A stretch of DNA of 64,000 nucleotides from an uncultured Planctomycetaceae bacterium. GTDB lineage: Bacteria; Planctomycetota; Phycisphaerae; SM23-33. The translations under genes and the position numbers were made by a program. Shown here one piece after another: positions 7,872 through 39,246 of the stretch. The notes below the pieces were generated by a model. The model saw only the letters and a list, made by a program, of their open reading frames with translations, did no database searches and had not been told where the DNA came from. Location of the stretch: the NCBI GenBank assembly GCA_964427875.1, contig CAYRVX010000003.1:46910-110909 (forward strand), given 5' to 3'. The first letter of the stretch is position 1. Each line of letters begins with the position of its first letter.

Positions 7872-7872
7872 G

Positions 7873-11816: not shown

Positions 11817-11976
11817 CGGAGCCTCTTGACGAAGTATAATCCGGACCTCACGCTGAGCATCGGCCCATGGGCACTGCCCATCTTGCGCCGGTGCAATGTA
11901 CCAGAAAATGCCGGGATCGCCGAGAAGTTCGCAAAAAGCCCGCGGAGCATTCCGGCGGGACCGCGAAAGGACGCTC

Positions 11977-13791: not shown

Positions 13792-14078
13792 GATCTGAGG
13801 CCGCCCGAAACGCCTACTTTGCTCCGACAGCCCGCCCTCTGCCGAACAGGCGGTTGGAACGCTTATTATAATCGATAATGCCCGAAGACCTGCATCTCTT
13901 ATGGAAAAGGTTTTGGCGCCTGGGCCGGCCGCGGGCGTCCGTCCGGCCGTCGCTTCGCCGACGGTTGGCCGCCGCGGGCCGGAAGAGTATAATCTCGTGC
14001 CGGGTGCCGAAGCGCCCCGCGAGACAGGTTGTTCGCCGCTACGATACGCATGGTCGGAAGGATTTCGGGGTCTTTGCC

Positions 14079-15482: not shown

Positions 15483-15533
15483 CGGACCGGCCGGCAATCC
15501 ACACGGGCTCTGCGGCGAGGCGGAGGCGCAGAC

Positions 15534-16685
15534 GTGAAGGTGGTCATCGCACCGGATTCGTTCAAGGAGTCGCTGACGGCGGCCGAGGTCACCGAGGCCA
15601 TTGCCGACGGCGTGAGAGCTGCCTGCCCGCAGGCGACGCTCGACCCGTGCCCCATGGCCGACGGCGGAGAGGGCACCGTGGCGGCCATGGTCGCGGCGAC
15701 CTGCGGGGAGGTTCGAACGGCCGGGGTCGCCGGACCGCTCGGCGAGCCCCTTCAGGCGGAGTTCGGCCTGCTCGGCGCCGCGGCGGGCTCCGCCGGTCGG
15801 ACAACCGCGGTGATAGAGATGGCCGCCGCGTCGGGCCTGGACCTGGTGCCGCCCGAGCGCCGAGACCCGATGCGGACGACCACCTACGGCACGGGGGAGC
15901 TGATCGCAGCGGCCCTGGAGGCCGGCGCGACGGGCGTCCTCATCGGCATCGGCGGCTCGGCCACCGTGGACGGCGGCTGCGGCTGCGCCCAGGCGGTGGG
16001 CGTGGTCTTCGCCGACGCCGCGGGCGATCCGTGCGTCCGCGGCCTGGCCGGCGGGGGACTGCCCACCGTTGACCGGATCGACATGAGTCGGCGCGACCCG
16101 CGAATCGCCGGCGCCCGCATCCGTGTGGCCTGCGACGTGACGAACCCCCTGACCGGCCCTCGCGGCGCCGCGGCCGTCTACGGGCCCCAGAAGGGGGCCT
16201 CTCCCGAGATGGTCCGGCAGCTCGAGGCGGGCCTGGTGCACCTTGCCGAGGTGATCCGCCGAGAGCTCGCCGTCGACGTGGAGCATCTGCCCGGCGCCGG
16301 GGCGGCCGGGGGGCTTGGGGCCGGGCTGGTCGCCTTCCTCGGCGCCGAGCTCCAGCGCGGCGTCGAGATCGTCGCCGACGCCGTCGCCCTTCGCGATCGC
16401 CTCGCCGGGGCCGACCTGTGCATTACCGGCGAGGGCCGCTTCGACGCCCAAAGCCTTTCGGGCAAGACGGCCGTCGGCGTCGCCCGCGTCGCCGGCGAGC
16501 TGTCCGTGCCGGCGATCTGCATCCCCGGCCAGGCCGAGCCGGGCCTCGACGACGAGGGGCTCTTCGCCGCGGTCCGGCCGCTGGCCGCCGGCGACGTGAC
16601 CATCGACCACGCCATGCGGCGGCCGAAGGAGCTCCTGGCGGCACGGGCGGCCGAGGCGGTGGAGGCGTTTCTCCGGGGCTCCTGA
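15534..16685 (+). CDS. glxK: Glycerate kinase
   Basis: Canonical N-terminus (M)KVVIAPDSFKESLTA. Gly-rich kinase family, 383 aa. GTG start. Confidence 0.85.
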   Translation: MKVVIAPDSFKESLTAAEVTEAIADGVRAACPQATLDPCPMADGGEGTVAAMVAATCGEVRTAGVAGPLGEPLQAEFGLLGAAAGSAGRTTAVIEMAAASGLDLVPPERRDPMRTTTYGTGELIAAALEAGATGVLIGIGGSATVDGGCGCAQAVGVVFADAAGDPCVRGLAGGGLPTVDRIDMSRRDPRIAGARIRVACDVTNPLTGPRGAAAVYGPQKGASPEMVRQLEAGLVHLAEVIRRELAVDVEHLPGAGAAGGLGAGLVAFLGAELQRGVEIVADAVALRDRLAGADLCITGEGRFDAQSLSGKTAVGVARVAGELSVPAICIPGQAEPGLDDEGLFAAVRPLAAGDVTIDHAMRRPKELLAARAAEAVEAFLRGS

Positions 16686-16799
16686 GGCGGCTCCCGGGGG
16701 CTTCACTTCCGGCCTTTCAGTATCTCTTGTGTCCGGAACCTGCTTGCGTTACGGTATTGGGCCTCGATCTGCGCCTGACGGACAGACAAGAGGGCGGTC

Positions 16800-18080
16800 A
16801 TGGACTTCTTCGACTACAGGGACGGCTCGCTGTGCTGTGAGGACGTGCCCGTTGCGGACATCGCCGCCGCGGTCGGCACGCCGGTCTACATCTACTCCGC
16901 CGCGACGCTGCTGCTGCACTATCGCCGTCTGGCCGAGGCGTTCGCCGAGCTGAAGCCCACGATCTGCTTCTCCGTCAAGTCGCTGGCGAACCTCCAGACC
17001 CTCAAGCTCCTGGCCGGGGCCGGCAGCGGGTTCGACGTGGTCTCCGGCGGCGAGCTGGCCCGCGTGCAGGCCGTCGGGGCCGACTGCCGAAGGATCGTCT
17101 TCGCGGGCGTCGGCAAGACCGATCGGGAGATCGACGAGGCGATCGAGGCCGGCATCGGGCTGTTCAACGTGGAGTCGCAGGAGGAGTTCGAGAACATCTC
17201 CCGCCTGGCCGCCGCCGCGGGCAGGCAGGTCCGCGCCGCCCTGCGGCTCAACCCCGACGTCTACGACCCCAAGACGCACAGGTACACCGCGACCGGCAAG
17301 AAGGAGACGAAGTTCGGCGTGGACATCGACCGCGCCGTCGAGTTCTTCCGGGCGTACGGCCGCGACGAGCACGCACGGCTGGACGCCATCCACCTGCACA
17401 TCGGCTCGCCGATCTACTCGGCCGAGCCGTACGTCAAGGCCATCACCAGGACGCTCGAGCTGATGGACCGGCTGAAGGGCGAGGGGTTCGAGGTCCGCAC
17501 GCTGGACATCGGCGGCGGGTTTGCCGCCGACTACGAAGAGGGCGCTTCGCCCCTCGCGACGGACTACGCCAGGGAGATCGTCCCTCTGCTGGCCGGCAGG
17601 GGCCTGGAGGTGATCCTCGAGCCCGGCCGGCAGATCGCCTGCAACGCCGGCCTGCTGCTGACGAAGGTCCTTTACGTCAAGAAGGGCGGCGAGCGGAGCT
17701 TCGTCATCGTGGATGGCGCGATGACGGACCTGGTTCGTCCGGTCATGTATGGCTCGGAGCATTTCGTCTGGCCAGCCCGGCTGGCGGAAGGAGCGCCCGC
17801 GCCCCAGCGCCGGAGCGGCTTCGCCGCCGAGGGCGGCCGGAAGGTGGACGTCGTCGGCGGCGTGTGCGAATCGAGCGATTTCCTGGCCAAGGATCGCGTT
17901 CTGCCCGTCATGCAGCGGGGCGACCTGCTGGCGGTGTTCTCCGCCGGGGCGTACGGTTTCGTGATGTCGAGCCAGTACAACTCCCGCCCTCGGGCGGCGG
18001 AGGTCCTCGTCGAGGGCGGCGCGTGGCGGATCATCCGCCCGCGGGAGACTTACGAAGACCTCTTCGCGACCGAGAAGTAG
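16800..18080 (+). CDS. lysA: Diaminopimelate decarboxylase
   Basis: PLP fold-III decarboxylase: CFSVKS, GSGFDVVSGGEL, LDIGGGF, ESSDFL. 426 aa. Confidence 0.9.
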   Translation: MDFFDYRDGSLCCEDVPVADIAAAVGTPVYIYSAATLLLHYRRLAEAFAELKPTICFSVKSLANLQTLKLLAGAGSGFDVVSGGELARVQAVGADCRRIVFAGVGKTDREIDEAIEAGIGLFNVESQEEFENISRLAAAAGRQVRAALRLNPDVYDPKTHRYTATGKKETKFGVDIDRAVEFFRAYGRDEHARLDAIHLHIGSPIYSAEPYVKAITRTLELMDRLKGEGFEVRTLDIGGGFAADYEEGASPLATDYAREIVPLLAGRGLEVILEPGRQIACNAGLLLTKVLYVKKGGERSFVIVDGAMTDLVRPVMYGSEHFVWPARLAEGAPAPQRRSGFAAEGGRKVDVVGGVCESSDFLAKDRVLPVMQRGDLLAVFSAGAYGFVMSSQYNSRPRAAEVLVEGGAWRIIRPRETYEDLFATEK

Positions 18081-18183
18081 CCCACCGCGGGTCCCGTCCG
18101 TCTCATGTCCTCCAACGCACGACCACGGCTTGCCGGTTGGCGGAACCCCCGAGAGCCCCTGTTTCCCGACAACGGCAATCGGA

Positions 18184-20199
18184 TCACGACTCGCTGCCGG
18201 CGAAGCCGAGGTACTCGTCGAGCCAGTCGTCGGTCCGCAGAACGCCCTTCCGCTGCCGCAGCGCCAGCCGCTCGGCCTTGCCCTGGGAGACGTCAAACAA
18301 CTTGCGGAGAACGCGGGAGGAGATCTCCCGCTCGGTCTTGCCGTGCCGCTTCTTCAGCGGGGCCGTCAGGTGGGGGGAGTACCGCTTCACGAGCTCGTCT
18401 TCCAGGCACACGATCGCGCCGGCCGTGCCCGGGTCGCCCTGCCTGGCCGAGCGGCCGTAAAGCTGGCGGTCGATCCGGCCCGATTCGTGCCGTTCGGTGG
18501 CCAGCACGTGCAGGCCGCCCCGTTCCGCCACGCCCCGCCCGAGCTTGATGTCCGTGCCGCGCCCGGCCATGTTCGTCGCCACCGTGATGCGCCCGGGCTG
18601 GCCGGCCTGCGCGACGATCTGCGCCTCCTCCTTGTGGCGAACGGCGTTGAGGACCTGGTGCTCGAGGTCCTCTGTCTCGAGCATGCGGCTGAGAAGCTCG
18701 CTCGCCCGGACGCTGCGTGTGCCGACGAGAACGGGCCGGCCGGTCTCGTGGACCCGGCGGATCTCGCCAACGATCGCCTTCCACTTGGCCTGCTGCGTGG
18801 CGTAGACGCGGTCGGCGGCGTACTTTCGGATGCACGGCCGGTTGGTCGGGATGATCACCGTGGGGCGGTGGTAGATCTGCCAGAACTCCCGCCAGGCCTC
18901 GACCGCCGTACCCGTCATGCCCGCGAGCTTGCGGTACAGGCGGAAGAACCGCTGAAAGCTGATTCGGGCGTACGTGTCCTTCGGCGGGTTGACCTCGAGG
19001 GTCTCCTTGGCCTCGATGGCCTGGTGCAGCCCGTCGCGCCAGGTGCGGTCGGGCATGAGGCGCCCGGTGAACTCGTCCACGATGACGACCTTGCCCTCGT
19101 CGATGATGTACTGCTTGTCGAGGACGAACAGCTCGCGGGCGCTGAGGGCCTGGATGACCAGCTCCTCTCGCCGCCGCTTGCCGGACCAGATCCCTCCAAA
19201 GGATGCGGCGAGCCGCTCGAGCTTCCTCTTGCCGGCGGGCGTCAGGTCCACCTCCCGGTAGCGATGGTTGACCCGGTAGTCCGTGCCGCGGAGGAACTGG
19301 GAGGCGATCTCGGCGGCCTGGTTGAAGGCCTCGACCTGCTCGGCGTTGGGCGCGTCGCCGGAGATGATCAGCGGCGTGACCGCCTCGTCGATGAGGACCG
19401 AGTCGGCCTCGTCCACGATCGCGTAGTTCACCCCGCGCATGACGAGCCGGTCCGTGCCCGTCCCGGCGCCCTGGGCGATCTTGGTCAGCAGGGCCATCGG
19501 AAGCCCCCGCAGCGACCCCAGCGCGAGGCGGTCGCGGAGGAAATCGGCGGTGACCTCCTTGTTCGTGCAGTAGGTGATGTCGGCCCGGTAAGCACGGCGG
19601 CGGTCCACAGGGGACATCTTCTGCTCGATGTGCGCGGCGGAGAGCCCGCAGAAGGCGTAGATCTTCCCCATCCATTCCGCGTCGCGCTTTGCGAGGTAGT
19701 CGTTGACGGTGATGATGTGGCAGCCCCGGCCGCGCCAGCCGGCGATGGTGGCCGGCAGCGTCGCCGTCAACGTCTTGCCCTCGCCGGTGGCCATCTCGGT
19801 GATGCAGCCGGCGTCCAGCGCCAGCGCGCCGGCAATCTGGACGGGAAAGTGCTTCTCCCCGATCTGCCGGCTGGCGACCTCGCGGACCAGGGCGAACGCG
19901 CGGTGAAGCTGCTGGCGCGTCTCCCTGCCGCGAAGGAACAGCTCGCGGAACGCGCCGGCTTGCTCCTTGAGCTTCGCGTCGCTCATCTCGGCGTAGAGCT
20001 TCTCGTGCCTCAGCACGTGCTTGGCCATCGAGAGGAACCGCTGGCGGCGCGGGGCGAGCTTCCCGGCGATCCCCGCGGCGGCGTCCCACACGGCGTCGAG
20101 CCCCTTGGGCAACTCGTCGCTGCGGGAGCGGTTGGCGAGCATCCGCCAGGTTGTGCTGGGGATCTGCGTCACGTCAGATCTGGAACCTCCGTTGGACAA
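18184..20199 (-). CDS. SecA paralogue (DEAD-motor NBD1-PPXD-NBD2), lacking the C-terminal HWD/CTL of canonical SecA
   Basis: Near-collinear SecA motifs: GEGKTLTATLPA, TVNDYLAKRDAEWMG, VDEADSVLIDEA(V)TPLIISG, KLAGMTGTA, VLVGT, VATNMAGRGTDIKL, GGLHVLATERHESGRIDRQLYGRSARQGDPG. Only ~670 aa. Its start overlaps the upstream M50-HlyD gene end by 26 nt. Confidence 0.8.
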   Translation of the reverse strand: MSNGGSRSDVTQIPSTTWRMLANRSRSDELPKGLDAVWDAAAGIAGKLAPRRQRFLSMAKHVLRHEKLYAEMSDAKLKEQAGAFRELFLRGRETRQQLHRAFALVREVASRQIGEKHFPVQIAGALALDAGCITEMATGEGKTLTATLPATIAGWRGRGCHIITVNDYLAKRDAEWMGKIYAFCGLSAAHIEQKMSPVDRRRAYRADITYCTNKEVTADFLRDRLALGSLRGLPMALLTKIAQGAGTGTDRLVMRGVNYAIVDEADSVLIDEAVTPLIISGDAPNAEQVEAFNQAAEIASQFLRGTDYRVNHRYREVDLTPAGKRKLERLAASFGGIWSGKRRREELVIQALSARELFVLDKQYIIDEGKVVIVDEFTGRLMPDRTWRDGLHQAIEAKETLEVNPPKDTYARISFQRFFRLYRKLAGMTGTAVEAWREFWQIYHRPTVIIPTNRPCIRKYAADRVYATQQAKWKAIVGEIRRVHETGRPVLVGTRSVRASELLSRMLETEDLEHQVLNAVRHKEEAQIVAQAGQPGRITVATNMAGRGTDIKLGRGVAERGGLHVLATERHESGRIDRQLYGRSARQGDPGTAGAIVCLEDELVKRYSPHLTAPLKKRHGKTEREISSRVLRKLFDVSQGKAERLALRQRKGVLRTDDWLDEYLGFAGSES

Positions 20200-22774
20200 G
20201 CTGGAGGATGGAGCGGTACCACTGGCCGGCCAGCGGGCGGCTCGGCATCTCGACGCGGACGACGACCCGCTGACCGCTGAGAAGCGGGCATCTGCCCCGC
20301 CAGGCGCTGTCCGGGTCGGCCACCGGATCGGACACGATGCGGATCTCGAAGAACCGCTCGGTGGCCTTCTTGCCGCGCGGGTCTTTCGGGTCGGTCTGGA
20401 TGGACCCCCCCGCGGCGTAGCCCAGCGCGGCGGAGGGGAGCTGCTCCCTTCCGGCCTCTATGATCTGGCGGATTCGGCCGGTCATGGGCGGATCGGGCAG
20501 GCCCTTGATGCGGATCTCGATCCCGCGCCAGGGCACCTTTCGGCGGGCGAGCACCTGGGCGTACTCCCGCCCGTTGATGCGGACGATGGCCAGGTCCTCG
20601 ATGGCCTGGTGGTCACGGGGGACCTCCCCGAGGCGGATGTGGACGGTGTGGAGCTTCTCTCCTGCGGCGGGCTCGGCGGACTGGCCGGCGTTCGAGTCCG
20701 CGGCCGGGCGAGGGGTGAGTGAGGCGTTGGGATCGGCGTTGGCGTCGACGGCCTTGGCGCCGAGACCGGCGTCTTCCGGCTCGATCCGCTGCACGACGAA
20801 GCCGACAGGCTCGTCGGGGCGGCCGGCCAGGATGAGTTGGCCGGTCAACTCCTCCTGCTTCGCGGCGGCTGTCCGCAGCGCCGCCCGGATGTCGGCGGCG
20901 GCCTCGGCGGGGAGGTGAAGCTCATAGAGGTCGGTAGGCCGGCCAAGCAGCATGTCGGCCACCTCTTGCCTCGCCGTGGCGCGGATGATGACCTCCCGGC
21001 TTGCGACGAGCCCGATCTGGTCGCCCCGGCGGAGGTACGCCCCGCGGGCGCGGTCGATCTTCGGGGCGATCCATTCGCCGTCCAGCCCGGCGCGGATGAC
21101 CAGGTCCTCGCGCTTCTCCTCGACGCGGTGGATCCGCTCGTCGAGCGCGGCGATCCGCTCGGCGAGGATCTGGGCGGCCGCGACGTCCTGAGTCTGGGCG
21201 AGCAGGCGCTGGGCCACGAGCTGGCGCCGCTCGGCCAGGAACTGCTCGTGCTGGGCAAGGAGCTCGGGGCTTTCCCCCGTCAGCAGCGGCTCGCCGTCGC
21301 GCTTGACCGGCCGGCCGGAACCCAACGTGCCCGTCACGAAGCCGTCGGTGGCGGCGTGGACGATCTGGAGGCGCTGCGGCTCGACCACGCCGTCGAGGCG
21401 GAACCGGTCCGGCGCGGGGACGAAGCCGATGCCGCCGACGATCAGTCCCAGGACCAGGAAGGTGGTGGCCATCGCGCGGGCCCGGACGCGGGTCAGCTCG
21501 CCGCTCGTGGCCAGGTACCGGAAGAACTTGCCCAGCGGTACGAGCACCCAGGTCACCGCCGCGGCCGTCGCCAGGATCACACCCAACATGAACAGCTTGC
21601 TCGCGACGAACAGGAGAATCCGCACGCAGATGAACACGCGGTAGAGGGTCGAGGCGATGCCGTAGAAGACGAACCATGCCTTCTCGCCGCGGGTGTGGGC
21701 GGGGTTGCGCGCCTGGCGAACGTTCCAGACGTACTTCTTGACCAGGTAGTAGATGTACTGCTTGGATCGCTGGGCAAGGTTGGGGATCTCCAGGATGTCC
21801 GAGAGGATGTAGTACCCGTCGTATCGCAGCAGCGGGTTGGCGTTGAAGAGGATCGTCGAGACGCTGGCGATGAACATCGCGTTGTAGCAGATGGTTCGCA
21901 GCGTGCCCTTGCCGACGTGGGCCCACACGATCGCCGCGACGGCCGCCAGCGCCAGCTCGATGATCATGCCCCCGCAACTGACGGTGATCCGCTGGCGCCG
22001 CGACCGGAACGCCCACGCGCTGGAGGCGTCCATGTACGGCATCGGCGTGAACACCAGGAACATGATGCCCATCACGTGGACTTCTCCCCCCGTGCCCGTC
22101 CGCCGGCCGAACGTCTTGCACATGAACGCGTGGCCAAATTCGTGGCAGACCTTGATCAGCACGAAGCTCAGGTACAGGAACGGCAGGTTCTCGACGTCCA
22201 GCACGTTCTCGGCCCGGCTGGACAGGTCGGACCAGTTCTCGATGACGAAGTACAGGCCCGTGCCGATCAGCCCCAGCCAGAGCAGAAAGCCGAACCACGT
22301 GAACAGCCAGGATATCGCGCCGACCCAGGCGTTCAGGAAGTTGTCCGGGTCGATCAGGGGGATGCGGATGAACAGGAGGTTCATCAGGTAGCCCTGGACC
22401 TCCCGGCGGACGCGTTTCTGGTAGCGTTTGAACAGCCCCTCCGCGTCGGGCGGCAGCTCGGCGTGCAGCAGGTTGGACGTGTAGAGCTGCCCGAGCAGTT
22501 GGATGGCCTCGCCCTGGGTGGGGGCGCCGTCGCCCAACTGGTCGGAGCAGATCCGCCAGACCTGCGCGACGGTCCTCCGCCCGTCCAGGAGGGACACGAA
22601 GCGATACGCCGCCTCGTTCAACCGGAAGTACTGGTTGCTGGAGGGGTCCTGGAGGACGTGCCACATCCGCCCCCGGTAGTGCTGGCGGTGGACCTGAACG
22701 GTGGTCCTCAGCCGCGGAGACAGCTCCGCGACACGGTACCACGATTCGCTGAATGTGGGGCGGTCAACAGGCAC
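20174..22774 (-). CDS. Tri-domain membrane protein: PqqD-like (RRE) domain + M50/site-2-protease-type zinc metalloprotease + HlyD-family periplasmic adaptor
   Basis: N-terminus YFRLNEAAYRFVSLLDGRRTVAQV (cf. PqqD KLNETAAAILELVDGRRDVAAI). An HEFGHA zinc motif in a TM helix plus NANPLLRYDGYY (S2P N..P....DG). A C-terminal coiled coil and beta-barrel typical of HlyD (RIHRVEEKREDL..., SPIDG-like). Confidence 0.75.
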   Translation of the reverse strand: MPVDRPTFSESWYRVAELSPRLRTTVQVHRQHYRGRMWHVLQDPSSNQYFRLNEAAYRFVSLLDGRRTVAQVWRICSDQLGDGAPTQGEAIQLLGQLYTSNLLHAELPPDAEGLFKRYQKRVRREVQGYLMNLLFIRIPLIDPDNFLNAWVGAISWLFTWFGFLLWLGLIGTGLYFVIENWSDLSSRAENVLDVENLPFLYLSFVLIKVCHEFGHAFMCKTFGRRTGTGGEVHVMGIMFLVFTPMPYMDASSAWAFRSRRQRITVSCGGMIIELALAAVAAIVWAHVGKGTLRTICYNAMFIASVSTILFNANPLLRYDGYYILSDILEIPNLAQRSKQYIYYLVKKYVWNVRQARNPAHTRGEKAWFVFYGIASTLYRVFICVRILLFVASKLFMLGVILATAAAVTWVLVPLGKFFRYLATSGELTRVRARAMATTFLVLGLIVGGIGFVPAPDRFRLDGVVEPQRLQIVHAATDGFVTGTLGSGRPVKRDGEPLLTGESPELLAQHEQFLAERRQLVAQRLLAQTQDVAAAQILAERIAALDERIHRVEEKREDLVIRAGLDGEWIAPKIDRARGAYLRRGDQIGLVASREVIIRATARQEVADMLLGRPTDLYELHLPAEAAADIRAALRTAAAKQEELTGQLILAGRPDEPVGFVVQRIEPEDAGLGAKAVDANADPNASLTPRPAADSNAGQSAEPAAGEKLHTVHIRLGEVPRDHQAIEDLAIVRINGREYAQVLARRKVPWRGIEIRIKGLPDPPMTGRIRQIIEAGREQLPSAALGYAAGGSIQTDPKDPRGKKATERFFEIRIVSDPVADPDSAWRGRCPLLSGQRVVVRVEMPSRPLAGQWYRSILQLVQRRFQI

Positions 22775-22806
22775 GATCAGCCCTCATTTCACCGGCCGTC
22801 GCGTAT

Positions 22807-25149
22807 CTACAGCCACAGCTTCATCCGGACCCAGTTGACCAGCCGGCGAGTCCAGATGTACCCGTAGCTCCGCCAATCGATGTCGATCTTGCCGACCCCC
22901 TCCATGCCCGGGCGGAGGATCTGGCGCGTCGCCGCCAGCCGGACCCGGACCTTGAAGACGTTCTCCTGCTCGACCACCTCGGCCACCGGATTAATCCGCT
23001 CGACGGTGAAGGCGATGCGTTCCTCCGGCAGGGCCGTGGTGGCCAGCTTGCCGGTGAGCTCCCTGTTCTCCCGCCGGGCCCTCTCCAGGGCGAGCTGGAC
23101 GTCGCCGATGAGGTCCTCCCGCACGGACAGCTCGCCTCGAAGGTCGGCGAGCGAGGCGATCTCAAACAGGACGTCGCCGGTCTTGACCGGCGCGCCGAGC
23201 TGGCGCTGGAGGTCGCCGGAGACGACATACCCGTCGATGGGCGAGACGAGCACGGCCTGGGCGATCCGGTGTTCGAGCAGCTTGATTCGCGCGGCGACCT
23301 GTTCGGCCTGGGCGCGGGCGATCTGGCTCTCGGCCCGCTTGTCTTCCCGCATGGCGGCGTCCGCCTGCTTGAGGTATGCCAGCTTCTCGGCCTCGGCCGA
23401 CATCAACTGGAGCCTGAGGTCCGCCGTCTCGAGCGTCCCCAGGACGGTCGGGCCCGGCGAGATCCTGCCGCGGAAGGCCGCGGCCAGGAGCGAGCGGTTC
23501 AGCTCCACCAGCCGGACGCCGCGCAGCGTGCCGGCCTCCAGCGCCGCCAGGAGGTCCTTGCGGCGCTCGGTCAGCTTGACATGCCGCCACGCGTCGGCGC
23601 TGTAGAACGTTCGCGTCGCCAGCAGCGCGTTCAGGTCGGCGAGCACGGCGGCGCGGGTGGCCTCGTCGATGCCCGCGATGGCGAGCTTGACCGCCTCGTT
23701 CGGGTCGACGGGCGCCGCCGATTCCACGGCCCGGCGAGTCTCTTCGCTCAGCAGCGACCAGACGTGCTTGCCGACGGAAGGCGCCTCGGCCGCCGCCCGG
23801 GCGCGGATCCCGGTCAGCAGGCCGGGCCAGTCCGAAACGTGGTGGTCCTCCAGAAGCCAGGACGGCTCGTCCGTCTTCGCGCCGCTGACCATGTCGCCCG
23901 GGAGGACGTACGCCCGCTTGAGGTAACCCTCGAACGGGGTGGGCACGACCTGCTGCGTGGTGGCCTCGAGCACGAAAGACGCCTCGGCGCGGTACTTCCC
24001 CTTGGCCAGGATGAGGAACAGGATCAGCGCGCAGATGGCGATGCCGGCGACCTTGATCCAGGTGTGTTTGGGTCCCAGTATGGTGGCGAGGCCGCTTCTT
24101 GCGGCCGCGGCGGCGCGGGCGCCGAACCAGCGGTCCTGTTTGTGGAGGCCCGCCAGCCGGGGGGTGCACAGGTCGCAGGCCAGCCGAAGCGACTCCACCT
24201 CATCGAACGCGAACGGCTCCTCGGCGAGACGTTCAAGCGTCAGCACGGCGGCGACGTCCTGGTCCCGCCGCAGCGGGAGGCCCAGAATCGCCGTCGGGCC
24301 GTGCTTCTTGGAAAGCTCTCTCGTGGCGCGGTTGACGAACGTTGTGCCCTGCGGAGCCGGACACAAGACCTCCACGTCCTGGTCCAGGGTCTCTTCCATC
24401 GCCGCCTCGATGTCCTGAACGAGCTGCATCTTGCGGCTGAACTTCTCGGTGTGGCTCATGGCCTTCAGATGGACGTACCGCCCCTTGAGGAAGCCCAGCG
24501 AGACCCGGTCGCAGTGCCAGCGGCTGGAGACCTCGTTGCACATGGCCATGGCCGCCCCCTTGAACCGGTCCTGCTCGTTGACGGCGGCGGTCGTCTCCAT
24601 GGCCAGCCGCAGGCGCATGAGGTCTCCCTGGCGCTGCTGAAGCGTCAGCCGCATCTCGTAAAGGCTCAGGAGGCTGACGGTCAGTTCCAGCCGCTGCTGC
24701 GTGGCGGCGAGCACGGCCGAGTCACTGCTGGCGACGACAAAGGTCGCCAGCCCCAGCACGCCGCTGCCGCCTCGCAGCGGGACCATGACCAGGTGCCTGC
24801 TGGCGGGCTGGCCGTACAGGTCGTCCGGCCCGTGGACGGGCTTGATGGTGGTCTTGCTCCCCGCGACGACGGCCGGTGCGGATTCAGCCGACTGGGCCAG
24901 CCAGACCGGCGCGGTCGAGCCGGGGGCCGGCTGGGGGTACACCGCCAGGATCTCCACTTGCTGATCGGCGCCGATCCGGAGAATCGCGCCGCCGTTGGCG
25001 GCGGCCAGGTGGCACTGAACGGCCAGCAGATTGACGAGGAACTGCTCCGGCGGGCCGTCGAATCGGCTAAGCCTCTCGATCATCTCGACCATCGTGGGCC
25101 GCTGCTGATCGGAGGATTCGTCGGAAACTCGAGCGGGATTGATGGTCAT
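22807..25149 (-). CDS. GAF-domain(s) + TM + HlyD-family membrane-fusion protein
   Basis: Two cytoplasmic GAF-like regions in ~1-400 aa. A TM helix IKVAGIAICALILFLILA. Then HlyD-like coiled coil/barrel: VSPIDGYVVSGDL, GDVLFEIASL. Confidence 0.7.
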   Translation of the reverse strand: MTINPARVSDESSDQQRPTMVEMIERLSRFDGPPEQFLVNLLAVQCHLAAANGGAILRIGADQQVEILAVYPQPAPGSTAPVWLAQSAESAPAVVAGSKTTIKPVHGPDDLYGQPASRHLVMVPLRGGSGVLGLATFVVASSDSAVLAATQQRLELTVSLLSLYEMRLTLQQRQGDLMRLRLAMETTAAVNEQDRFKGAAMAMCNEVSSRWHCDRVSLGFLKGRYVHLKAMSHTEKFSRKMQLVQDIEAAMEETLDQDVEVLCPAPQGTTFVNRATRELSKKHGPTAILGLPLRRDQDVAAVLTLERLAEEPFAFDEVESLRLACDLCTPRLAGLHKQDRWFGARAAAAARSGLATILGPKHTWIKVAGIAICALILFLILAKGKYRAEASFVLEATTQQVVPTPFEGYLKRAYVLPGDMVSGAKTDEPSWLLEDHHVSDWPGLLTGIRARAAAEAPSVGKHVWSLLSEETRRAVESAAPVDPNEAVKLAIAGIDEATRAAVLADLNALLATRTFYSADAWRHVKLTERRKDLLAALEAGTLRGVRLVELNRSLLAAAFRGRISPGPTVLGTLETADLRLQLMSAEAEKLAYLKQADAAMREDKRAESQIARAQAEQVAARIKLLEHRIAQAVLVSPIDGYVVSGDLQRQLGAPVKTGDVLFEIASLADLRGELSVREDLIGDVQLALERARRENRELTGKLATTALPEERIAFTVERINPVAEVVEQENVFKVRVRLAATRQILRPGMEGVGKIDIDWRSYGYIWTRRLVNWVRMKLWL

Positions 25150-25160
25150 CTGCTGCTATC

Positions 25161-26075
25161 TCATCTTGTCGGCCGCGCCGCGACCTCCCCGGCCTTCGAG
25201 CCGCCGGGCGAAGCCGTCCTCTTCCCGCCGGGAAAGCTGACGTACACGCGCTCGCCCGCCGGCCTGCCGGTGGAATTCGGCGCCTCGACCCGGACCGTCA
25301 GGGTGCCGCTGGCAGCGTCGGCGACGGCGACAATGTGGGCGATCCTCGCATCCACCAGCAGCGGACGGCTGACGTCATCCGTCTCAAACTCCACGACGGC
25401 CTTGCCGCCCTTCTTCAGACGGCGGGCCCGGCCGAGCGGAACGGGAACGTCGACCCAGAGCGGATCGATCTTGACCACGCGAATGACCCGCTCCAGTGCA
25501 TCGACCGACTCGCCTTCCTCCACCAGCCCCTGCGCCAGCGGCTTGCCCGGCCCGGGGAGGGGACGCTCCACCACCCCGTCGATGGGGCTCTTGAGCCGCA
25601 TGCGGGCATGCTGGATGCACGCCTCGCGGTACTTCCGCTGGTCCTGCTTGCGCTGAAACTTGGCCAGGTCCAGCGAGAGCTCGGAGATCTTCACCTCGAG
25701 GACGGCGTGATCGACCTCCATCTTGGTGGCCGCTCCGTTATCGAACGCCCATTCTTTCTGTTTGAGGTCGACTCTTTTCTGGGCGAGTTGGGCTTCGGCG
25801 GCCTTGACGCGGGTCTCGTCTTCGGCCTGGGCCTTTAGCTGTTCGAGCTGCGCCAACTCGGCTTCGTCGTCGAGCCGGATGAGCTCCTGGCCGGCTTTGA
25901 CCTCGTCGCCCTCTTTGACGAGCACCTTGGCGACGCGGCCGGGGCGAATGAACGATAGGGTCGCGTCGCTGCTGGGCTTGGTGAAGGCCTCAATCCGGTC
26001 CTGCCCCCAGAGGCTCGGGCAGGCGCCCAGCGCCACAAGCACAAGACTCAACACGGGGTTCCTTCTCGCTGTCAT
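25161..26075 (-). CDS. HlyD / efflux-adaptor (biotin-lipoyl-like) family protein with signal peptide
   Basis: MTARRNPVLSLVLVALGAC signal. A lipoyl-like KAGQELIRLD, a coiled-coil, and KSPIDGVV. 304 aa. First gene of the 4-gene operon. Confidence 0.7.
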   Translation of the reverse strand: MTARRNPVLSLVLVALGACPSLWGQDRIEAFTKPSSDATLSFIRPGRVAKVLVKEGDEVKAGQELIRLDDEAELAQLEQLKAQAEDETRVKAAEAQLAQKRVDLKQKEWAFDNGAATKMEVDHAVLEVKISELSLDLAKFQRKQDQRKYREACIQHARMRLKSPIDGVVERPLPGPGKPLAQGLVEEGESVDALERVIRVVKIDPLWVDVPVPLGRARRLKKGGKAVVEFETDDVSRPLLVDARIAHIVAVADAASGTLTVRVEAPNSTGRPAGERVYVSFPGGKRTASPGGSKAGEVAARPTR

Positions 26076-26273
26076 GGCGTTTTCATCCTGAAATCATCAG
26101 GGATCGACCGTCCAGATCAGCCCAATACCAGTATCGCCATATCCAAGTGGCAACACAAGGAAAAACATGCCTAAGCCCTGCGTGTGACTGCCGATTGTCT
26201 CTTGGCGGCCGGCGGCGGAAGCGGCCGCGGCCGCTCGCGCAGGCACACCGCCGGTCAGGCGGGAGGGAATCTC

Positions 26274-26303
26274 CTTGACGTCTTTCCGCACCGCACGGCA
26301 TAC
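26274..26303 (+). promoter_or_regulatory. Possible sigma70-type promoter for the sigma54-activator gene
   Basis: TTGACG (26274-26279), an 18-nt spacer, then CATACT (26298-26303). This lies ~45 nt upstream of ATG 26350. Sequence-only guess. Confidence 0.25.
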
Positions 26304-26349
26304 TGACCTGCCGCACGCCGCAAACTCCGCTGCTTCCAGGAATGGCGAG

Positions 26350-27876
26350 ATGATGGTGTCGATCAAACACTTGCCGCCGGAGGCGCTGTCGGCCCTGGTG
26401 GACGCTTCGGCGGCGATCAACTCCGCCCTGGGTCTCGACGAGACGCTGGCGGCGATTGCGCGCGCGGCCGCGTCGGTGATGCGGGCCGAGGCTTCCAGCG
26501 TTATTGTCCTGGACGAGACCCGCGGCAAGCAGGTGTTCCGGGCGGCCGTCGGTGACCGCGCCGATCAGCTCCAGGGCCTGGCCTACGATCGGGCTCTGGG
26601 CATCTCCGGCAAGGTGCTGGTGAGCGGGGAGGCCGAGATCGTTAACGACGTCTCCAAGGAGCGGTCCCATTACCACGAGATCGACGCGCTGGTGGCGTTC
26701 GAGACCCGCAGCCTCATTGCCGCCCCCCTGATCAACAAGGGCCGGACCCTCGGCGTCGTCGAGGTGCTGAACCCGGTGCAGTCCGAGCTGTTCGCCGAAG
26801 AGGACAGGCAGTTGTGCAAGGTCTTTGCCAACCTCGCGGCCATCGCGATGGCCAACGCACAGCTCTACGACCGCATCCAGCGCGAGAACGACCAACTGAA
26901 GCAGACCTACCAGCCGGCCGAGGAGATCGTCGGCATCTCCGCGGGAATGGAGAACGTCAGGAACCTGATCCGCCGGGTCTCGCGCTCGTCGGCCACCGTC
27001 CTGCTGCTGGGCGAGACGGGCACCGGCAAGGAGATCGCCGCCAGGACGGTCCACGCCGAGTCCGACCGGGGGGGCAAGCCCTTCGTGGCCATCAACTGCG
27101 CGGCCCTGCCGGAGACGCTCCTGGAAAGCGAGCTCTTCGGACACGAGGCGGGGGCGTTCACCGGAGCGGTGGAACGAAAGCTCGGCCGCTTCGAGCTGGC
27201 CGAGGGAGGCACGCTGTTCCTCGACGAGATCGCCGAGGTGGCCCCGAGCATCCAGGTGACGTTGCTTCGGGCCCTCCAGGAGAAGGAGATTGTCCGGGTC
27301 GGCGGCACGGAGACGATCGGGTGCGACGTGCGGATCGTCGCGGCGACCAACCGCGACCTCGCCGAGGAGATGAGGGCCCACAGGTTCCGAGAGGACTTGT
27401 ACTACCGGCTGAACGTCTTTCCGATCGAGATCCCCCCCCTCCGGGAACGGAGAGAGGACATCCCGCTGCTGGTGGACCACTTCATCCGTCACGTGGCGTC
27501 CGAGATGAAGATGCCCGTGCCGATTCTCTCCCCCGAGGCCATGACGGCACTGACGCAGTACGATTATCCCGGGAACATCCGGGAGTTGCAGAACATCCTG
27601 GAGCGGGCGTGCCTGCTGTGCTGCCGGATGGACGGCGCCTGGCCGCGGCCCCAGCCGATCGGGCCGGAGCACCTCCCGAGGGAGTTGGCCGGCGAGATCC
27701 AGCCGGGTGCCCCCGGCGAGTCGGCCCTGGCGGCCTCCGAGAAGGGCATGATCGTAAAGGCCCTCCGCGAGAACGCCTGGAACCAGACCAAGGCGGCCAG
27801 GGCCCTCGGCATTACCCGCGACAACATCCGCTACCGGATCCGCAAGTACAAGATACAGCTCCCCCAAAAGGGCTGA
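26350..27876 (+). CDS. Sigma-54-dependent transcriptional activator (GAF sensor + AAA+ sigma54-interaction + Fis-type HTH)
   Basis: GETGTGKE Walker A, the GAFTGA sigma54-contact motif, ELFGHE, and a C-terminal HTH ([22 protein letters not shown]). An N-terminal GAF domain. Start at MMVSIKHL. Confidence 0.88.
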
Positions 27877-28225
27877 GCGCGTCCTGCCTGCGGGCACGTC
27901 TGCCACGATGGCCCCCGACGACAGATCGTAAAGTCTTTGCTGTAAGTAGCCTGACCTGATTCCTGTCCCGGGCGCCCGGCCCCCTTGCGATTCGCTCGTC
28001 GCTCCCTATCTCCTTGCCCGCGGCTGATTTGAATCGTACTGTTGCTTGTGGCAGCAAGCCGGGCTCCGCGTTACGAAGGCCGGGGTCCTCCGGAGCTTCT
28101 CTCTGAGGCGCCTCAAGAAGCGCCCCCATTGCACCTGCGTGGCGGATCCAGTGTGGATTCCCCGTATTTCGTGCTTTCATCAAGACTTGGCGTTTGGTGC
28201 ACGCATACGCCCCAGGAGTGACCAA

Positions 28226-31200
28226 GTGAGCAATCTGAACTGGCAGCCGCCGCTGTTCGAGCAAATGGAGCCCCGTTTGCTGCTCAGCGCTTCACCGGTG
28301 CCGGAGGAGATCGACCTTCCGGCCTTCAGTGAGCAGTGCGTCACGGGCGGCCTCGACGTCGGCGAATCGCAGATGTACGTCTTCACCGCGGCGGCCAGCG
28401 GGTACGTCTACATGAACATGGGGGCCGCCGAAGGCAGCGGGGTCGATTCCTACCTGGAGGCCTTCAACTCCGGCCTGCGCAGGATCGCCCGGAACAACAA
28501 CGCCAGCAGGTACACTCAGGACAGCCGGATCCGCCTGCGCGTTAGCACGGGGCGCACGTACTACGTCCGCGCGAGGGGCGCCGCAGGAACCGATGGCGAC
28601 TACGAGCTGACGCTCACCAGCCGGCCGTACGACGACTACGGCAACACCGCCGAGGCGGCCAGGGCCCTGCGGGTCCGCCGGAGCGGCTCGACGTCGGCTC
28701 GCGGCAGGATCAACTGCGTCGGCGACACGGACTGGCTGTCGTACACGGCCCGCGACGACGGCCTGGTGCGTGTACGGATGCTCGCCTACGGCCGAGGTAA
28801 CAAGCTGGTCGGCTCGCTCGGCGTCTACGACGCCGCCGGCAACCTCATCACCAGCCAGGTCGCAGAGGAGAGCCACTGGTTCGAGCTGAGCTTCTCGGCG
28901 CTCAAGGGGCAGACGTATTACCTGGAGGCCTCCGGCGGGGAGAACACCACGGGCAGATACCTGGTCAAGGTGCTGCCGATGATCCTTCAGGAGTTCATCG
29001 ACGCAGAGGAGGTGGACCTTCCTGCCTTCAGCGAGCAGTCCGTCACGGGCGGCCTCGACGTCGGCGGGACCCAGATGTACAAGTTCACCGCGACGGCCAG
29101 CGGGTACGTCTACCTGAACATGAAGGCCGCCGAAGGCAGCGAGATCGACTCCTATCTGGAGGTCTTCAACCCCGGCCAGCGGAGGATCGCCCGGAACAGC
29201 AACGCCAACAGGTACACTCAGGACAGCCGTATCCGCCTCCGCGTTCGCGCGGGGCGCACGTACTACGTCCGCGCGAGGGCCGCCGGAGGGACCGAGGGCG
29301 ACTACGAGCTGACGCTCACCAGCCGGCCGTACGACGACTACGGCAACACCGCCGAGGCGGCCAGGGCCCTGCGGGTCCGCCGGAACGGCTCGACGGCGGC
29401 GCGGGGCAGGATCAACTGCATCGGCGACACGGACTACTTCTCGTACACCGCGCGGGGCAGCGGCCTGGTGCAGGTGCAGATGATCGCCTACGGCCGATGG
29501 AACAAGCTGTCCGGCATGCTCAACGTCTACGACGCCGCCGGCGACATGATCGCCAGCGATCACGGCGGCGTGGGCGGCACGTCCGCCCTGAGCTTTTCGG
29601 CGGTTAAGGGACAGACGTACTACATGGCGGCCTCCAGCGACGACAACAGCACGGGCAGATACCTGATGAAGGTGCTGCCGATAATCCCGCAGGAGTTCAT
29701 CGACGCGGAGGAGGTGGACGTCCCGGCCTATGGCGAGGAAACCGCCGCCGGCGCCCTCGACGTCGGCGGGACCAAGATGTACAAGTTCACCGCGGCGACC
29801 AGCGCGTATCTCTATCTGGACATGGCCGCCGCCGACGGAAGCGCGATCGACTCCTACCTGGAGGTCTTCAACTCCGCCCGGCGCAGGATCGCCCGGAACA
29901 ACAACGCCAGCAGGTACAATCGGGACAGCCGGGTCCGCATCCGCGTTCGGGCCGGCCAGACCTACTACGTCCGCGCCAGGGCCGCCCGGGGAACCGAGGG
30001 CGACTACGAGCTGACCTTCACGAGCCGGCCCAACGACGACGCGGGCAACGACATCGATCACGCCGCGTACCTTCAGCTCGAAAGCGACGGCTCCCGCCAG
30101 GCCCACGGGAAGGTCAACTATGCCGGCGACATCGACGTGCTGGAGATCGTCGCCCCCGTGACCGGCGAGATGACCGTGACGGCTGCGGCGCCCGGCGGGG
30201 ACGGCAGCATCACGCCGAGGCTCCGGGCCGATGACTCCACTGGCGAGCAACTGGTGATCGACGAAGACGGCGACGCCGCCTGCACCGTCACGTTCGGCGT
30301 GGTCGAGGGCGAGACGTACTACCTGAGGATCGCCAGCCTGGACGACAACACGGGCCGGTACGAGCTGATGGTGTCGACCGACACGGACGTCGATCCGGAC
30401 CCGGCCCCCGACCCCGACCCCGACCCGGACCCGGTTCCGCCCGACGATCCCACGCCGGGCGAGCTCGTCACGGGATGGATCAGCGAGGAGCCGGGCGGCT
30501 ACCGGCTGATCGTCGCCGGGACCGACAGCAGCGACATCATCACGCTGAGCGTCAGCGGCTCGGTGACGACGCTCACCTACGCCAGCGGCTCACTCGACTT
30601 CGCCGGCGTCTTCGACGACATCTCGATCTACGGCTTCGGCGGCGACGACGTGATCCGCATGGACTACTCGATCGCCGGCTCGGGCATCGTCTACGCCGGC
30701 GAGGGCAACGACACGGTATACGACAACAGCCTCGGCGCCGCAGGCGTGTACGGCGGGGCGGGCGACGACCTGCTGATCAGCCTCGGCGGCGGCGTGGACA
30801 GCCTCTGGGGCCAGGCGGGCTGCGACAGCTTCTGGGTGGACATGGGCGACTCGCTCGGCGACGCCGACTCCGCCGAGTACGACGCGACGGCCGTCCACCG
30901 AATCACTCAGTTCTATCAGCCCTACTCCGCGGTCCCCGGCTCTGCGGATTACGTCTCGATGGAGATCGCCGGGCAGAACTTCCGCGACCCCACACCCACC
31001 AGCTACGGGCGAGCGTGGGTGAACTTCGCGAGCAACCCGCTCTTTGCCGACGGGCCGGAACACAACGACATCCGCCAGGGCTCGGTAGGCGACTGCTACT
31101 TCCTGGCGTGCCTGGCCAGCATGTCCGACAGCGACCCGAACGTGATCCGCCAGATGGTGACGGCCCTGGGTGACGGGACGTACGCGGTGCGGTTCTTCCG

Positions 31201-31714
31201 CGGCGGTCAAGCCTCCTACCTCCGACTCGACGCCGACCTGCCCGTCTACTCCGGCAGCAGCCTCAGCTACGCCAAGCTGACGCCGGACGGCGAGACCTGG
31301 GTGGCGATCGTCGAGAAGGCCTACTGCCATTTCCGGTACGGCCAGAACTCCTACGCCTCCATCAGCGGCGGGTGGATGAGCACCGTCTTCCAGGAGATGA
31401 CCAACCGGCCCACCACCACCATGTGGACGGGCGGGTCGCAGGCGTCCCTGGCGAGCTTCATCATCTCCGCCCTCGACAGCGGGCACGCGGCCACCCTCGG
31501 AAGCTACGGTAACGCCCCCTCGCCGATCGTCGGATCGCACGCGTACATGCTCAAGTCGATCGAGTTCGTCGAGGGCGAGGCGATCGTGACGGTCTACAAT
31601 CCCTGGGGAGTGGACGGAAAGACCTACGACAGCAACTACAGCGACGGCCTGTTGAGGCTCGACCTGTCGCAGGTGCAGGCTTGCTTCTCGGCCATCGTCA
31701 TCAGCCTGGCATAG
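28226..31714 (+). CDS. Giant secreted protein: 3 tandem units of paired PPC (pre-peptidase C-terminal)-like domains + Asp/Pro linker + RTX-type Ca-binding repeats + calpain-like (C2) cysteine protease domain
   Basis: GTG start with RBS AGGAG 7 nt upstream. The N-terminus carries PPLFEQMEPRLLLSA. Three ~236-aa repeats each hold the PPC-like signature GDTDW/YxSYTA...YDAAGN...GQTYY. A linker reads PDPAPDPDPDPDP. Gly-Asp repeats GFGGDDVIRMD / GEGNDTV / GGAGDDLL. Calpain motifs QGSVGDCYFLACLAS (Cys), SHAY (His), NPWG (Asn). Confidence 0.78.
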   Translation: MSNLNWQPPLFEQMEPRLLLSASPVPEEIDLPAFSEQCVTGGLDVGESQMYVFTAAASGYVYMNMGAAEGSGVDSYLEAFNSGLRRIARNNNASRYTQDSRIRLRVSTGRTYYVRARGAAGTDGDYELTLTSRPYDDYGNTAEAARALRVRRSGSTSARGRINCVGDTDWLSYTARDDGLVRVRMLAYGRGNKLVGSLGVYDAAGNLITSQVAEESHWFELSFSALKGQTYYLEASGGENTTGRYLVKVLPMILQEFIDAEEVDLPAFSEQSVTGGLDVGGTQMYKFTATASGYVYLNMKAAEGSEIDSYLEVFNPGQRRIARNSNANRYTQDSRIRLRVRAGRTYYVRARAAGGTEGDYELTLTSRPYDDYGNTAEAARALRVRRNGSTAARGRINCIGDTDYFSYTARGSGLVQVQMIAYGRWNKLSGMLNVYDAAGDMIASDHGGVGGTSALSFSAVKGQTYYMAASSDDNSTGRYLMKVLPIIPQEFIDAEEVDVPAYGEETAAGALDVGGTKMYKFTAATSAYLYLDMAAADGSAIDSYLEVFNSARRRIARNNNASRYNRDSRVRIRVRAGQTYYVRARAARGTEGDYELTFTSRPNDDAGNDIDHAAYLQLESDGSRQAHGKVNYAGDIDVLEIVAPVTGEMTVTAAAPGGDGSITPRLRADDSTGEQLVIDEDGDAACTVTFGVVEGETYYLRIASLDDNTGRYELMVSTDTDVDPDPAPDPDPDPDPVPPDDPTPGELVTGWISEEPGGYRLIVAGTDSSDIITLSVSGSVTTLTYASGSLDFAGVFDDISIYGFGGDDVIRMDYSIAGSGIVYAGEGNDTVYDNSLGAAGVYGGAGDDLLISLGGGVDSLWGQAGCDSFWVDMGDSLGDADSAEYDATAVHRITQFYQPYSAVPGSADYVSMEIAGQNFRDPTPTSYGRAWVNFASNPLFADGPEHNDIRQGSVGDCYFLACLASMSDSDPNVIRQMVTALGDGTYAVRFFRGGQASYLRLDADLPVYSGSSLSYAKLTPDGETWVAIVEKAYCHFRYGQNSYASISGGWMSTVFQEMTNRPTTTMWTGGSQASLASFIISALDSGHAATLGSYGNAPSPIVGSHAYMLKSIEFVEGEAIVTVYNPWGVDGKTYDSNYSDGLLRLDLSQVQACFSAIVISLA
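28290..30410 (+). repeat. Three tandem ~708-bp intragenic DNA repeats (high nucleotide identity) encoding the PPC-like domain pairs
   Basis: Near-identical strings recur at ~28320, ~29020 and ~29725 (ccttcagcgagcagtccgtcacgggcggcctcgacgtcggcgg...). The protein repeats share >70% identity. Confidence 0.7.
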
Positions 31715-31800: not shown

Positions 31801-31904
31801 CTCACCTTTCCGGGAACCTTTCTGCGCGAAAACGTCAAATAGGAATAGAGATCGTGCGGATGAAGTCGTGATTTGCGCGCTCTTGCACAGGTGTAAATGG
31901 AAAC

Positions 31905-38498: not shown

Positions 38499-38542
38499 GT
38501 AGATAACTCAAAGTGACCGATTCGCCAGCTTCCCGGGAGGTG

Positions 38543-39233: not shown

Positions 39234-39246
39234 CCGTCTCTTCTCG

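Follow-up and report, generated by a model that had tools for sequence, protein, structure and literature searches.

The window analysed here is a stretch of 64,000 nucleotides from an uncultured Planctomycetaceae bacterium (contig CAYRVX010000003.1, positions 46,910 to 110,909), which carries on its minus strand a four-gene operon encoding three periplasmic adaptors and a truncated paralogue of SecA. The operon almost certainly belongs to the module of a secondary SecA_DEAD protein and three HlyD proteins that was reported across several phyla in 2015 (Kamneva, Poudel & Ward, PLoS One 2015, PMC4452313). The module is probably a protein export apparatus, and the chance that LEPR-XLL proteins, represented here by the product of 28226-31714, are its cargo is about even. 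The best explanation overall is an envelope-spanning, type-I-like export machine for LEPR-XLL proteins, a proposal on which our confidence is evenly balanced. The genes concerned are as follows.

25161..26075, minus strand: first gene, periplasmic adaptor of the HlyD/RND_mfp type, 304 aa (HlyD_3, HlyD_D23, Biotin_lipoyl_2, TIGR01730)
22807..25149, minus strand: GAF-transmembrane-adaptor protein, 780 aa (GAF, one transmembrane helix, HlyD_3)
20174..22774, minus strand: fusion of a PqqD-like RiPP recognition element (RRE; RiPP, ribosomally made peptide with post-translational modifications), a site-2 (M50) metalloprotease and an adaptor, 866 aa (PqqD, M50 motifs, adaptor fold)
18184..20172, minus strand: truncated SecA paralogue, start codon uncertain (SecA_DEAD, SecA_PP_bind, P-loop_SecA)
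28226..31714, plus strand: candidate cargo, 1162 aa, with the N-terminal LEPR-XLL motif MSNLNWQPPLFEQMEPRLLLSASPV at nt 28250-28300 (NF012209, Peptidase_C2)
26275..27876, plus strand, divergent from the operon: GAF-containing sigma54 enhancer-binding protein (GAF, Sigma54_activat, HTH_8)

The window has a high GC content (about 0.67), at which long spurious open reading frames (ORFs) are common, and real genes were picked by their GC content at third codon positions (GC3). Four co-directional minus-strand genes had been proposed in an earlier, sequence-only reading of this DNA; all four ORFs (25161-26075, 22807-25149, 20174-22774 and 18184-20199) were present with coding-type GC3 values (0.84-0.93), and they form a real, well-conserved operon. 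The domain assignments of that reading were likewise borne out by Pfam and NCBIfam profile searches, with PqqD, HlyD, GAF and SecA above threshold and M50 recognised through its motifs and a family model. Beyond the SecA gene, the minus-strand ORFs 16749-18296 and 13899-16706 were rejected on their GC3, as the genes in this region run on the plus strand. These encode a DegP-like protease, a glycerate kinase and an Orn/DAP (ornithine/diaminopimelate) decarboxylase, housekeeping genes that are syntenic in the relative L002. The operon therefore ends with the SecA gene.

According to the 2015 description, secondary SecA_DEAD proteins have lost the wing/scaffold domain and are always encoded with three partners, namely a weak-Peptidase_M50/HlyD protein, an HlyD/biotin-lipoyl "secretion protein" and a GAF/HlyD protein, sometimes together with an OEP (TolC) gene. 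The secondary SecAs exist beside canonical SecA in sequenced isolates, and in some genomes parts of the module can lie elsewhere; the authors proposed the SecA-like protein as the ATPase of a type-I-like system and the M50 protein as its membrane part (PMC4452313). The window presented the same picture: a wingless SecA_DEAD protein, adjacent M50-HlyD, GAF-HlyD and HlyD/biotin-lipoyl proteins, and linkage across phyla. The four components, the phyla and the occasional OEP/TolC neighbour are all shared with the published module, and the view that this architecture was undescribed and could not be named had to be given up, though the publication contains neither PqqD nor a cargo. PMC4452313 makes no mention of PqqD, sigma54 or any substrate, and the points not found in it are the PqqD/RRE domain, a DUF3467 gene of Planctomycetota, the cargo and the LEPR-XLL proteins. 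The clade of the window differs further in that each of the two anchored adaptors has an insertion of about 140-150 aa and a sigma54 activator is encoded beside the module. No functional follow-up of the module was found in the literature.

The linkage of the components was assessed by a scan of one genome per species, in which at least 595 species genomes carried homologues of the fusion. Eighty loci were fetched from Planctomycetota, Verrucomicrobiota, Lentisphaerota, Desulfobacterota, Nitrospirota, Elusimicrobia and others, and 84 loci entered the comparisons; neighbours were scored by tblastn of the window proteins in loci with enough flank, and the ORFs of the loci were also clustered. 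Of 62 loci, 60 had the GAF-adaptor gene immediately upstream of the fusion gene, and of 61 loci, 54 had the short SecA gene immediately downstream of it. The gene order GAF-adaptor, fusion, short SecA was kept in approximately 90-97% of testable loci, across phyla, and the conservation of neighbourhood put forward earlier as a test of the operon thus holds. The gap between the GAF-adaptor and fusion genes is 32 nt in the window and mostly 0-30 nt in other loci, and the tight spacing of the module genes is consistent with translational coupling. The fusion family is large: more than 7,000 database clusters (90% identity) were found among 8,000 candidates scored, and an exhaustive search at E<=1e-30 gave 4091 clusters (50% identity), with most members of about 715-730 aa. 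Seven loci had the fusion without a directly downstream short SecA (L010, L012, L033, L034, L037, L039 and L081), and the GAF-adaptor was present in the four of these where it could be scored.

Clustering of ORFs revealed just two further conserved neighbours, a TolC-like gene and a DUF3467 gene, neither of which is in the window. The TolC-like gene (approximately 577 aa) was found upstream in 26 loci by ORF clustering, in non-planctomycete phyla (L046, L053-L057, L063, L064, L067, L071, L074-L076, L082 and others), and in 15 of the 43 loci with enough upstream flank. This TolC/OEP-like gene opens the operon in the versions of Verrucomicrobiota, Desulfobacterota and Nitrospirota, about 3.6 kb upstream of the fusion gene. 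The DUF3467 protein (approximately 124 aa) is the product of a conserved fifth gene, which separates the genes of the first adaptor and the GAF-adaptor in 23 loci of Planctomycetota (L001, at 7671-8048; L007-L009, L011-L016, L019, L022, L024, L026-L028, L030, L035, L042, L044, L045, L047 and L048). Among the closest relatives of the window it is present in L047 and, as in the window itself, absent from L002, L004 and L006. The N-terminus of the protein is disordered and acidic/Q-rich, and a conserved beta-sheet and a long helix come after it; it showed no sequence or fold relation to SecB or to any solved structure.

The three periplasmic adaptors of the module are different from one another: one is soluble, one is anchored and has a cytoplasmic GAF domain, and one is anchored via an intact site-2 protease with a cytoplasmic RRE. 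The first (25161-26075) matched HlyD_3 in Pfam (E 1e-12) and RND_mfp TIGR01730 in NCBIfam (103.5 bits, cut-off 94.9), and it has an N-terminal signal peptide with a possible lipobox, LGAC, at residues 16-19; cleavable signal peptides are present in its homologues, and the lipobox Cys is not conserved. In the second (22807-25149), a cytoplasmic N-terminal region with GAF (residues 205-328, nt 24166-24537; 25.8 bits, cut-off 22.4) is followed by a transmembrane helix (residues 364-382, nt 24004-24060) and a periplasmic HlyD-type adaptor part (HlyD_3, residues 633-748; 36.1 bits, cut-off 22.2). The cytoplasmic GAF sensor proposed earlier for this protein is therefore present, but as one domain by Pfam rather than several. 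The protein also contains a clade-specific helical insertion of approximately 150 aa (about residues 420-570), and its homologues elsewhere are of about 620-630 aa.

In the fusion protein, PqqD was detected at residues 39-103 (nt 22466-22660; PF05402, 27.8 bits, cut-off 23.4), while Peptidase_M50 remained sub-threshold in Pfam (23.9 vs. a cut-off of 27.2), and HlyD_D23 likewise. Residues 20-416 matched the daptide RRE-intramembrane protease model (NF041824) with E 6e-48, at 163.9 bits below the equivalog cut-off of 300 bits, and the YydH/LiaK model of NCBIfam was matched with E 8e-10. The intramembrane M50 protease read from the sequence alone was upheld by the conservation of its motifs, HEFGH (residues 211-215, nt 22130-22144) and NANPLLRYDG (residues 311-320, nt 21815-21844), in which the metal-ligand positions, and H211, E212, H215, N311, N313 and D319 in all, are invariant in 24 homologues. 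Hydropathy gave approximately seven transmembrane helices over residues 143-450, and with seven such segments the RRE would be cytoplasmic and the adaptor periplasmic. The adaptor part occupies residues 453-866 (nt 20177-21418), with an alpha-hairpin at 503-556. An AlphaFold2 model, better in its C-terminal half, showed an RRE-like unit of three strands and three helices at residues 27-99. The C-terminal half of the model matched MexA, AcrA and MacA (Foldseek E ~1e-9, probability 1.00), which confirmed the weak HlyD call at this end. A clade-specific insertion was also found in the fusion, at about residues 625-760. The periplasmic insertions of approximately 140-150 aa in both anchored adaptors are common to L002 and L004-L006 and absent from the forms of about 725 aa and 625 aa, and this parallel lengthening hints at a taller periplasmic duct in the clade.

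The short SecA matched SecA_DEAD (E 4e-102), SecA_PP_bind and P-loop_SecA, with no other Pfam domains, and it aligned with residues 29-604 only of Bacillus subtilis SecA. It retains the first nucleotide-binding domain (NBD1), the preprotein cross-linking domain (PPXD), NBD2 and the initial turns of the scaffold helix. The helical wing, the two-helix finger and the C-terminal tail are missing from the alignment, in agreement with the earlier description of a SecA-like motor without the canonical C-terminal domains. Canonical SecA uses the wing domain, the two-helix finger and the scaffold on SecY. The protein scored below the cut-offs of the canonical SecA models (TIGR00963, 638.9 vs. 800 bits; NF009538, 660.5 vs. 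814 bits) and far under those of all four SecA2 models of NCBIfam, and it has no SecY2 or Asp neighbours. Three start codons are candidates, namely GTG 20172, ATG 20142 (the public gene call) and TTG 20199 (the sequence-only reading). GTG 20172, which lies one nucleotide past the TGA of the fusion gene with GGAGG 13 nt upstream, is favoured because homologues lacking the Met of ATG 20142 still keep the upstream residues PSTTWR. The overlap of 26 nt between the SecA and fusion genes, which depended on TTG 20199, is accordingly unproven.

Evidence on a possible cargo came from the plus-strand ORF 28046-31714, in which NCBIfam flagged a LEPR-XLL domain (NF012209, 25.1 bits, cut-off 17). The start codon, GTG 28226, has AGGAG 7 nt upstream and is the same as in the public gene call; with this start, the motif MSNLNWQPPLFEQMEPRLLLSASPV begins at residue 9. 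The protein has a C-terminal calpain-type cysteine protease domain (Peptidase_C2, E 4e-23), and no Sec-type hydrophobic segment follows its LEPR-XLL motif. A six-frame search of the 84 loci with the motif gave 18 matches in 17 loci, compared to 0 with the reversed motif. Nearly all matches were at the start of very long ORFs, many of which exceed 1,500-2,600 aa and run off the locus. An HMM built from the motif matches added two weak ones, in L038 (E 0.089) and L034 (E 0.94), giving 19 of 84 loci, and the curated cut-off of NF012209 was passed by nine of the ten LEPR-XLL neighbours tested.

The positions of LEPR-XLL genes relative to the module do not look random. The LEPR-XLL gene directly flanks the module in 15 loci, or at 15 of about 150 flanking positions. 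In eight of these loci (L008, L044, L055, L057, L058, L068, L075 and L082) it has the same orientation as the short SecA gene and begins 139-319 nt beyond it, while in the other seven it abuts the SecA gene convergently (L043), lies upstream in the orientation of the module with its end 170-642 nt away (L004 and L041) or is the divergent neighbour of the module (L038, L048, L054 and L078). The LEPR-XLL-bearing loci come from four phyla, with members in Planctomycetota, Verrucomicrobiota, Lentisphaerota and Desulfobacterales. In L004, a homologue of the LEPR-XLL protein of the window is encoded directly beside the module but is arranged differently, indicating that the link between the two has survived rearrangement. 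The earlier guess that adjacent giant proteins are the substrate thus gains from this association as far as 28226-31714 is concerned, but not for 31872-36149, which shows no link to the module. No paper tying LEPR-XLL proteins to the module was found in the literature, and prior notice by curators or others is possible.

On the same strand after the LEPR-XLL gene are 31872-36149, encoding 1425 aa with TPR (tetratricopeptide repeat) and Secretin_N domains, and 36154-38154, encoding 666 aa without a Pfam match. Homologues of the two were not found beside the module in other loci, and the secretin-like giant protein 31872-36149 was rejected as an outer-membrane partner, as it is not near the module elsewhere.

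These observations can be joined into a mechanism, of which the individual steps are unlikely when each is taken alone. The N-terminal LEPR-XLL segment would serve as an export signal resembling a leader, which the RRE domain would bind in the cytoplasm; this reading draws on the binding of RiPP leaders by RRE domains and on MpaP, an RRE-dependent leader peptidase and the nearest relative of the module to have been characterised. The SecA-like motor would dock on the cytoplasmic RRE or GAF domains, rather than use SecY in the canonical manner, and the GAF domain may gate the motor or serve as its docking site. The motor might then drive the unfolded chain across the inner membrane, in a passage made up of the M50 and transmembrane domains of the oligomerised fusion, and the M50 site would clip the N-terminal tag. 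A mixed tube of the three adaptors could finally hand the chain to an outer-membrane factor encoded elsewhere in the genome. The M50 protease EpeP is thought both to cleave and to export its peptide (PMC10885120). Put together, the parts may constitute a distinct and unnamed Gram-negative secretion system for large LEPR-XLL proteins, with the RRE, a domain otherwise known from RiPP biosynthesis only, co-opted as signal receptor, the site-2 protease as signal peptidase and inner-membrane gate, the wingless SecA as motor and the three adaptors as periplasmic duct, a proposal that we advance tentatively.

Two published observations are circumstantial to this proposal. Giant proteins with built-in wingless SecA_DEAD/PP-bind domains occur in Omnitrophota, and these domains have been put forward as their exporters (bioRxiv 10.1101/2023.11.21.568195), and a horizontally acquired secA (Cag_1676) falls in a co-expression cluster (bioRxiv 10.64898/2026.03.19.712371). 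One Chlorobi species is among the module carriers (PMC4452313), possibly the organism of Cag_1676.

Several points weigh against an export machine for LEPR-XLL proteins. The LEPR-XLL gene of the window is 2.2 kb away on the opposite strand with the activator gene in between, and approximately 77% of the loci are without a LEPR-XLL gene within the fetched flanks. No TolC-like gene was found anywhere in the 64-kb window, as had been noted from the start. The transmembrane/protease part of the fusion contains low-confidence segments in the AlphaFold2 model (mean pLDDT 72.7, pTM 0.46), and an M50 domain acting as a protein-conducting channel is not known.

Among the other explanations, the one given by the sequence-only reading was a RiPP-type system, in which the leader of a small peptide is recognised by the PqqD/RRE domain and cleaved by the M50 protease, and the peptide is exported via the adaptors. 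The matches of residues 20-416 to the daptide leader peptidase model and of the fusion to the YydH/LiaK model speak for it, and the parallel then drawn with RiPP leader proteases was sound: RRE-site-2-protease fusions are the leader peptidases of daptide clusters, as in MpaP (bioRxiv 10.1101/2023.03.08.531785), and M50 proteases process epipeptides and pearlins (PMC10885120). However, the daptide-model score (164 vs. 300 bits) is below the cut-off, and no conserved ORF of 18-90 aa was found in or around the module in the 84 loci, nor any of at least 50 aa except DUF3467. Clustering of 1,112 intergenic small ORFs (18-90 aa) yielded low-complexity matches or antisense artefacts only, a 54-aa ORF in L002 was discarded as a precursor since it is not conserved, and the intergenic gaps, mostly of 0-30 nt, leave no room inside the operon. 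The earlier reading had likewise seen no evident small precursor ORF, and the alternative substrate it offered, an unannotated peptide, lost ground as no RiPP-type precursor is conserved. No modifying enzyme is conserved nearby, the conserved neighbours being only the TolC-like, adaptor and DUF3467 genes. A B12-binding radical SAM (S-adenosylmethionine) protein of 719 aa is encoded at 10371-12530 on the minus strand, about 6 kb from the operon, and as it is not kept near the module in relatives it does not speak for a RiPP cluster. Long polypeptides are suggested instead by the LEPR-XLL adjacency and by a SecA motor that has a preprotein clamp, and the RiPP-type system is considered improbable.

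An accessory pathway of the SecA2 type, in which the short SecA serves housekeeping SecYEG for a subset of proteins and the adaptors act separately or downstream in a two-step export, fits the sequence in so far as it is closest to the SecA and SecA2 families and the secondary SecA clade was placed beside actinobacterial SecA2 (PMC4452313). The short SecA nevertheless has no wing or two-helix finger and lacks most of the scaffold, it falls far below all SecA2 models with no SecY2 or Asp genes nearby, and it is strictly coupled to genes for membrane-anchored adaptors, which makes this pathway decidedly improbable. Regulated intramembrane proteolysis or envelope signalling, where the site-2 protease would cleave a membrane regulator upon sensing of a ligand by GAF, without export, is very improbable: signalling is a classic task of M50 proteases, the module includes a GAF sensor and an activator gene adjoins it in this clade, but the three periplasmic adaptors, the TolC gene in cis in other phyla and the SecA-type motor argue against it, the activator is not conserved with the module, and no anti-sigma or sigma gene is conserved nearby. 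The least probable of these explanations is efflux of small molecules or lipids by a pump of the MacAB/tripartite type, with a SecA-derived ATPase in place of the ABC (ATP-binding cassette) component. In structure the adaptors come nearest to MexA, AcrA and MacA, and their best NCBIfam model is an RND (resistance-nodulation-division) adaptor family, yet the module has no ABC, RND or MFS (major facilitator superfamily) transporter component, and a small-molecule pump has no use for the preprotein cross-linking domain, the RRE or the protease.

The proposed export machine resembles several known systems in part. It shares with type I secretion systems, among them HlyBD-TolC and the peptidase-containing ABC transporters (PCATs), a membrane-fusion adaptor and, in the phyla that encode one in cis, a TolC-type conduit, and with PCATs also a leader-cleaving protease built into the inner-membrane component and cargo genes that are often adjacent. 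It differs from type I secretion in its SecA-derived ATPase, its three different adaptors and the absence of an ABC transporter; no ABC gene was found in the module of the window, and none is conserved in the 84 loci. The protease is M50 and not C39, and the putative signal is the N-terminal LEPR-XLL, not a C-terminal RTX-type signal or a double-glycine leader. The RRE-site-2 proteases of RiPP systems (daptide MpaP/DapP; EpeP/YydH, TglG) likewise have an N-terminal PqqD-like RRE fused to an intramembrane HExxH protease, but the window fusion adds a C-terminal adaptor of more than 400 aa and linkage to SecA, lacks precursor and modifying enzymes, and scores below the cut-off. As with the accessory SecA2 of Gram-positive bacteria and mycobacteria, a second, specialised SecA would serve a subset of exported proteins; SecA2, however, keeps the scaffold, wing and finger and acts on SecY/SecY2, whereas the SecA of the window ends after NBD2 and is coupled to adaptors. 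The giant proteins of Omnitrophota and Actinobacteria (West-Roberts et al., bioRxiv 2023) also tie a wingless SecA ATPase with a preprotein-binding domain to very large proteins as a proposed exporter, with the difference that their SecA domain is inside the giant, while in modules of the window type it is a separate protein of 650-670 aa in an adaptor operon.

Regulation of the operon was considered in view of the divergent activator. The profile searches confirmed the GAF-containing sigma54 enhancer-binding protein of the earlier reading, but not the association of the operon with sigma54. The activator adjoins the module only in the closest relatives L002, L006 and L047 and is absent in the equally close L004 and in all other phyla, and its membership of the export system is doubtful. 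No -24/-12 (GG/GC) sigma54 promoter was found in the intergenic region 26076-26274, and the operon leader had no match to an Rfam family. An alignment of the four closest loci revealed instead one conserved block upstream of the operon, which looks like a sigma70-like promoter and not a sigma54-like one.

26121..26166, minus strand: promoter-like block, TTGTGT (26153-26158), 17 nt, GATACT (26130-26135)

A near-consensus sigma54 site, TGGCAAAGACCTTGCA, was observed at 26815-26830 on the minus strand with one mismatch, oriented toward the operon. Located within the activator gene at a distance of 740 nt upstream from the first ATG, it has two and three mismatches in L002 and L006, respectively, and it is probably due to chance or coding constraint. 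Another site, with two mismatches at 28266-28281, falls within the coding part of the LEPR-XLL gene and was rejected. That the GAF domains of the activator and of the GAF-adaptor sense a ligand in common was also rejected, since their similarity is not specific and they are unrelated beyond the fold.

Further along the window, the region 38000-44400 has a GC content of 0.605-0.62 compared to approximately 0.67-0.71, and contains genes for an AAA ATPase (42263-43252, minus strand), an 834-aa subtilase (39740-42244, minus strand) and an Mrr-type restriction endonuclease (43544-44320, plus strand); it resembles a small defence or mobile island. The plus strand then carries, at 44628-45934, an ExbB/ExbD (MotA/TolQ-type) gene pair, followed by a gene for a 452-aa protein without a Pfam match.

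The module is widespread, with at least 595 species genomes and approximately 4,000 clusters of the fusion family at 50% identity, and it has been without an assigned function, cargo or name since 2015. The RRE domain and the recurrent LEPR-XLL adjacency are two points absent from the 2015 description, and they yield a specific, testable secretion hypothesis. The adjacency joins two questions, the exit route of very large proteins without signal peptides in Planctomycetota, Verrucomicrobiota and their relatives, and the role of the LEPR-XLL motif. If the hypothesis is true, this would be a secretion system assembled from parts of Sec, type I secretion and RiPP processing, and the role of RRE domains would extend beyond natural-product biosynthesis.

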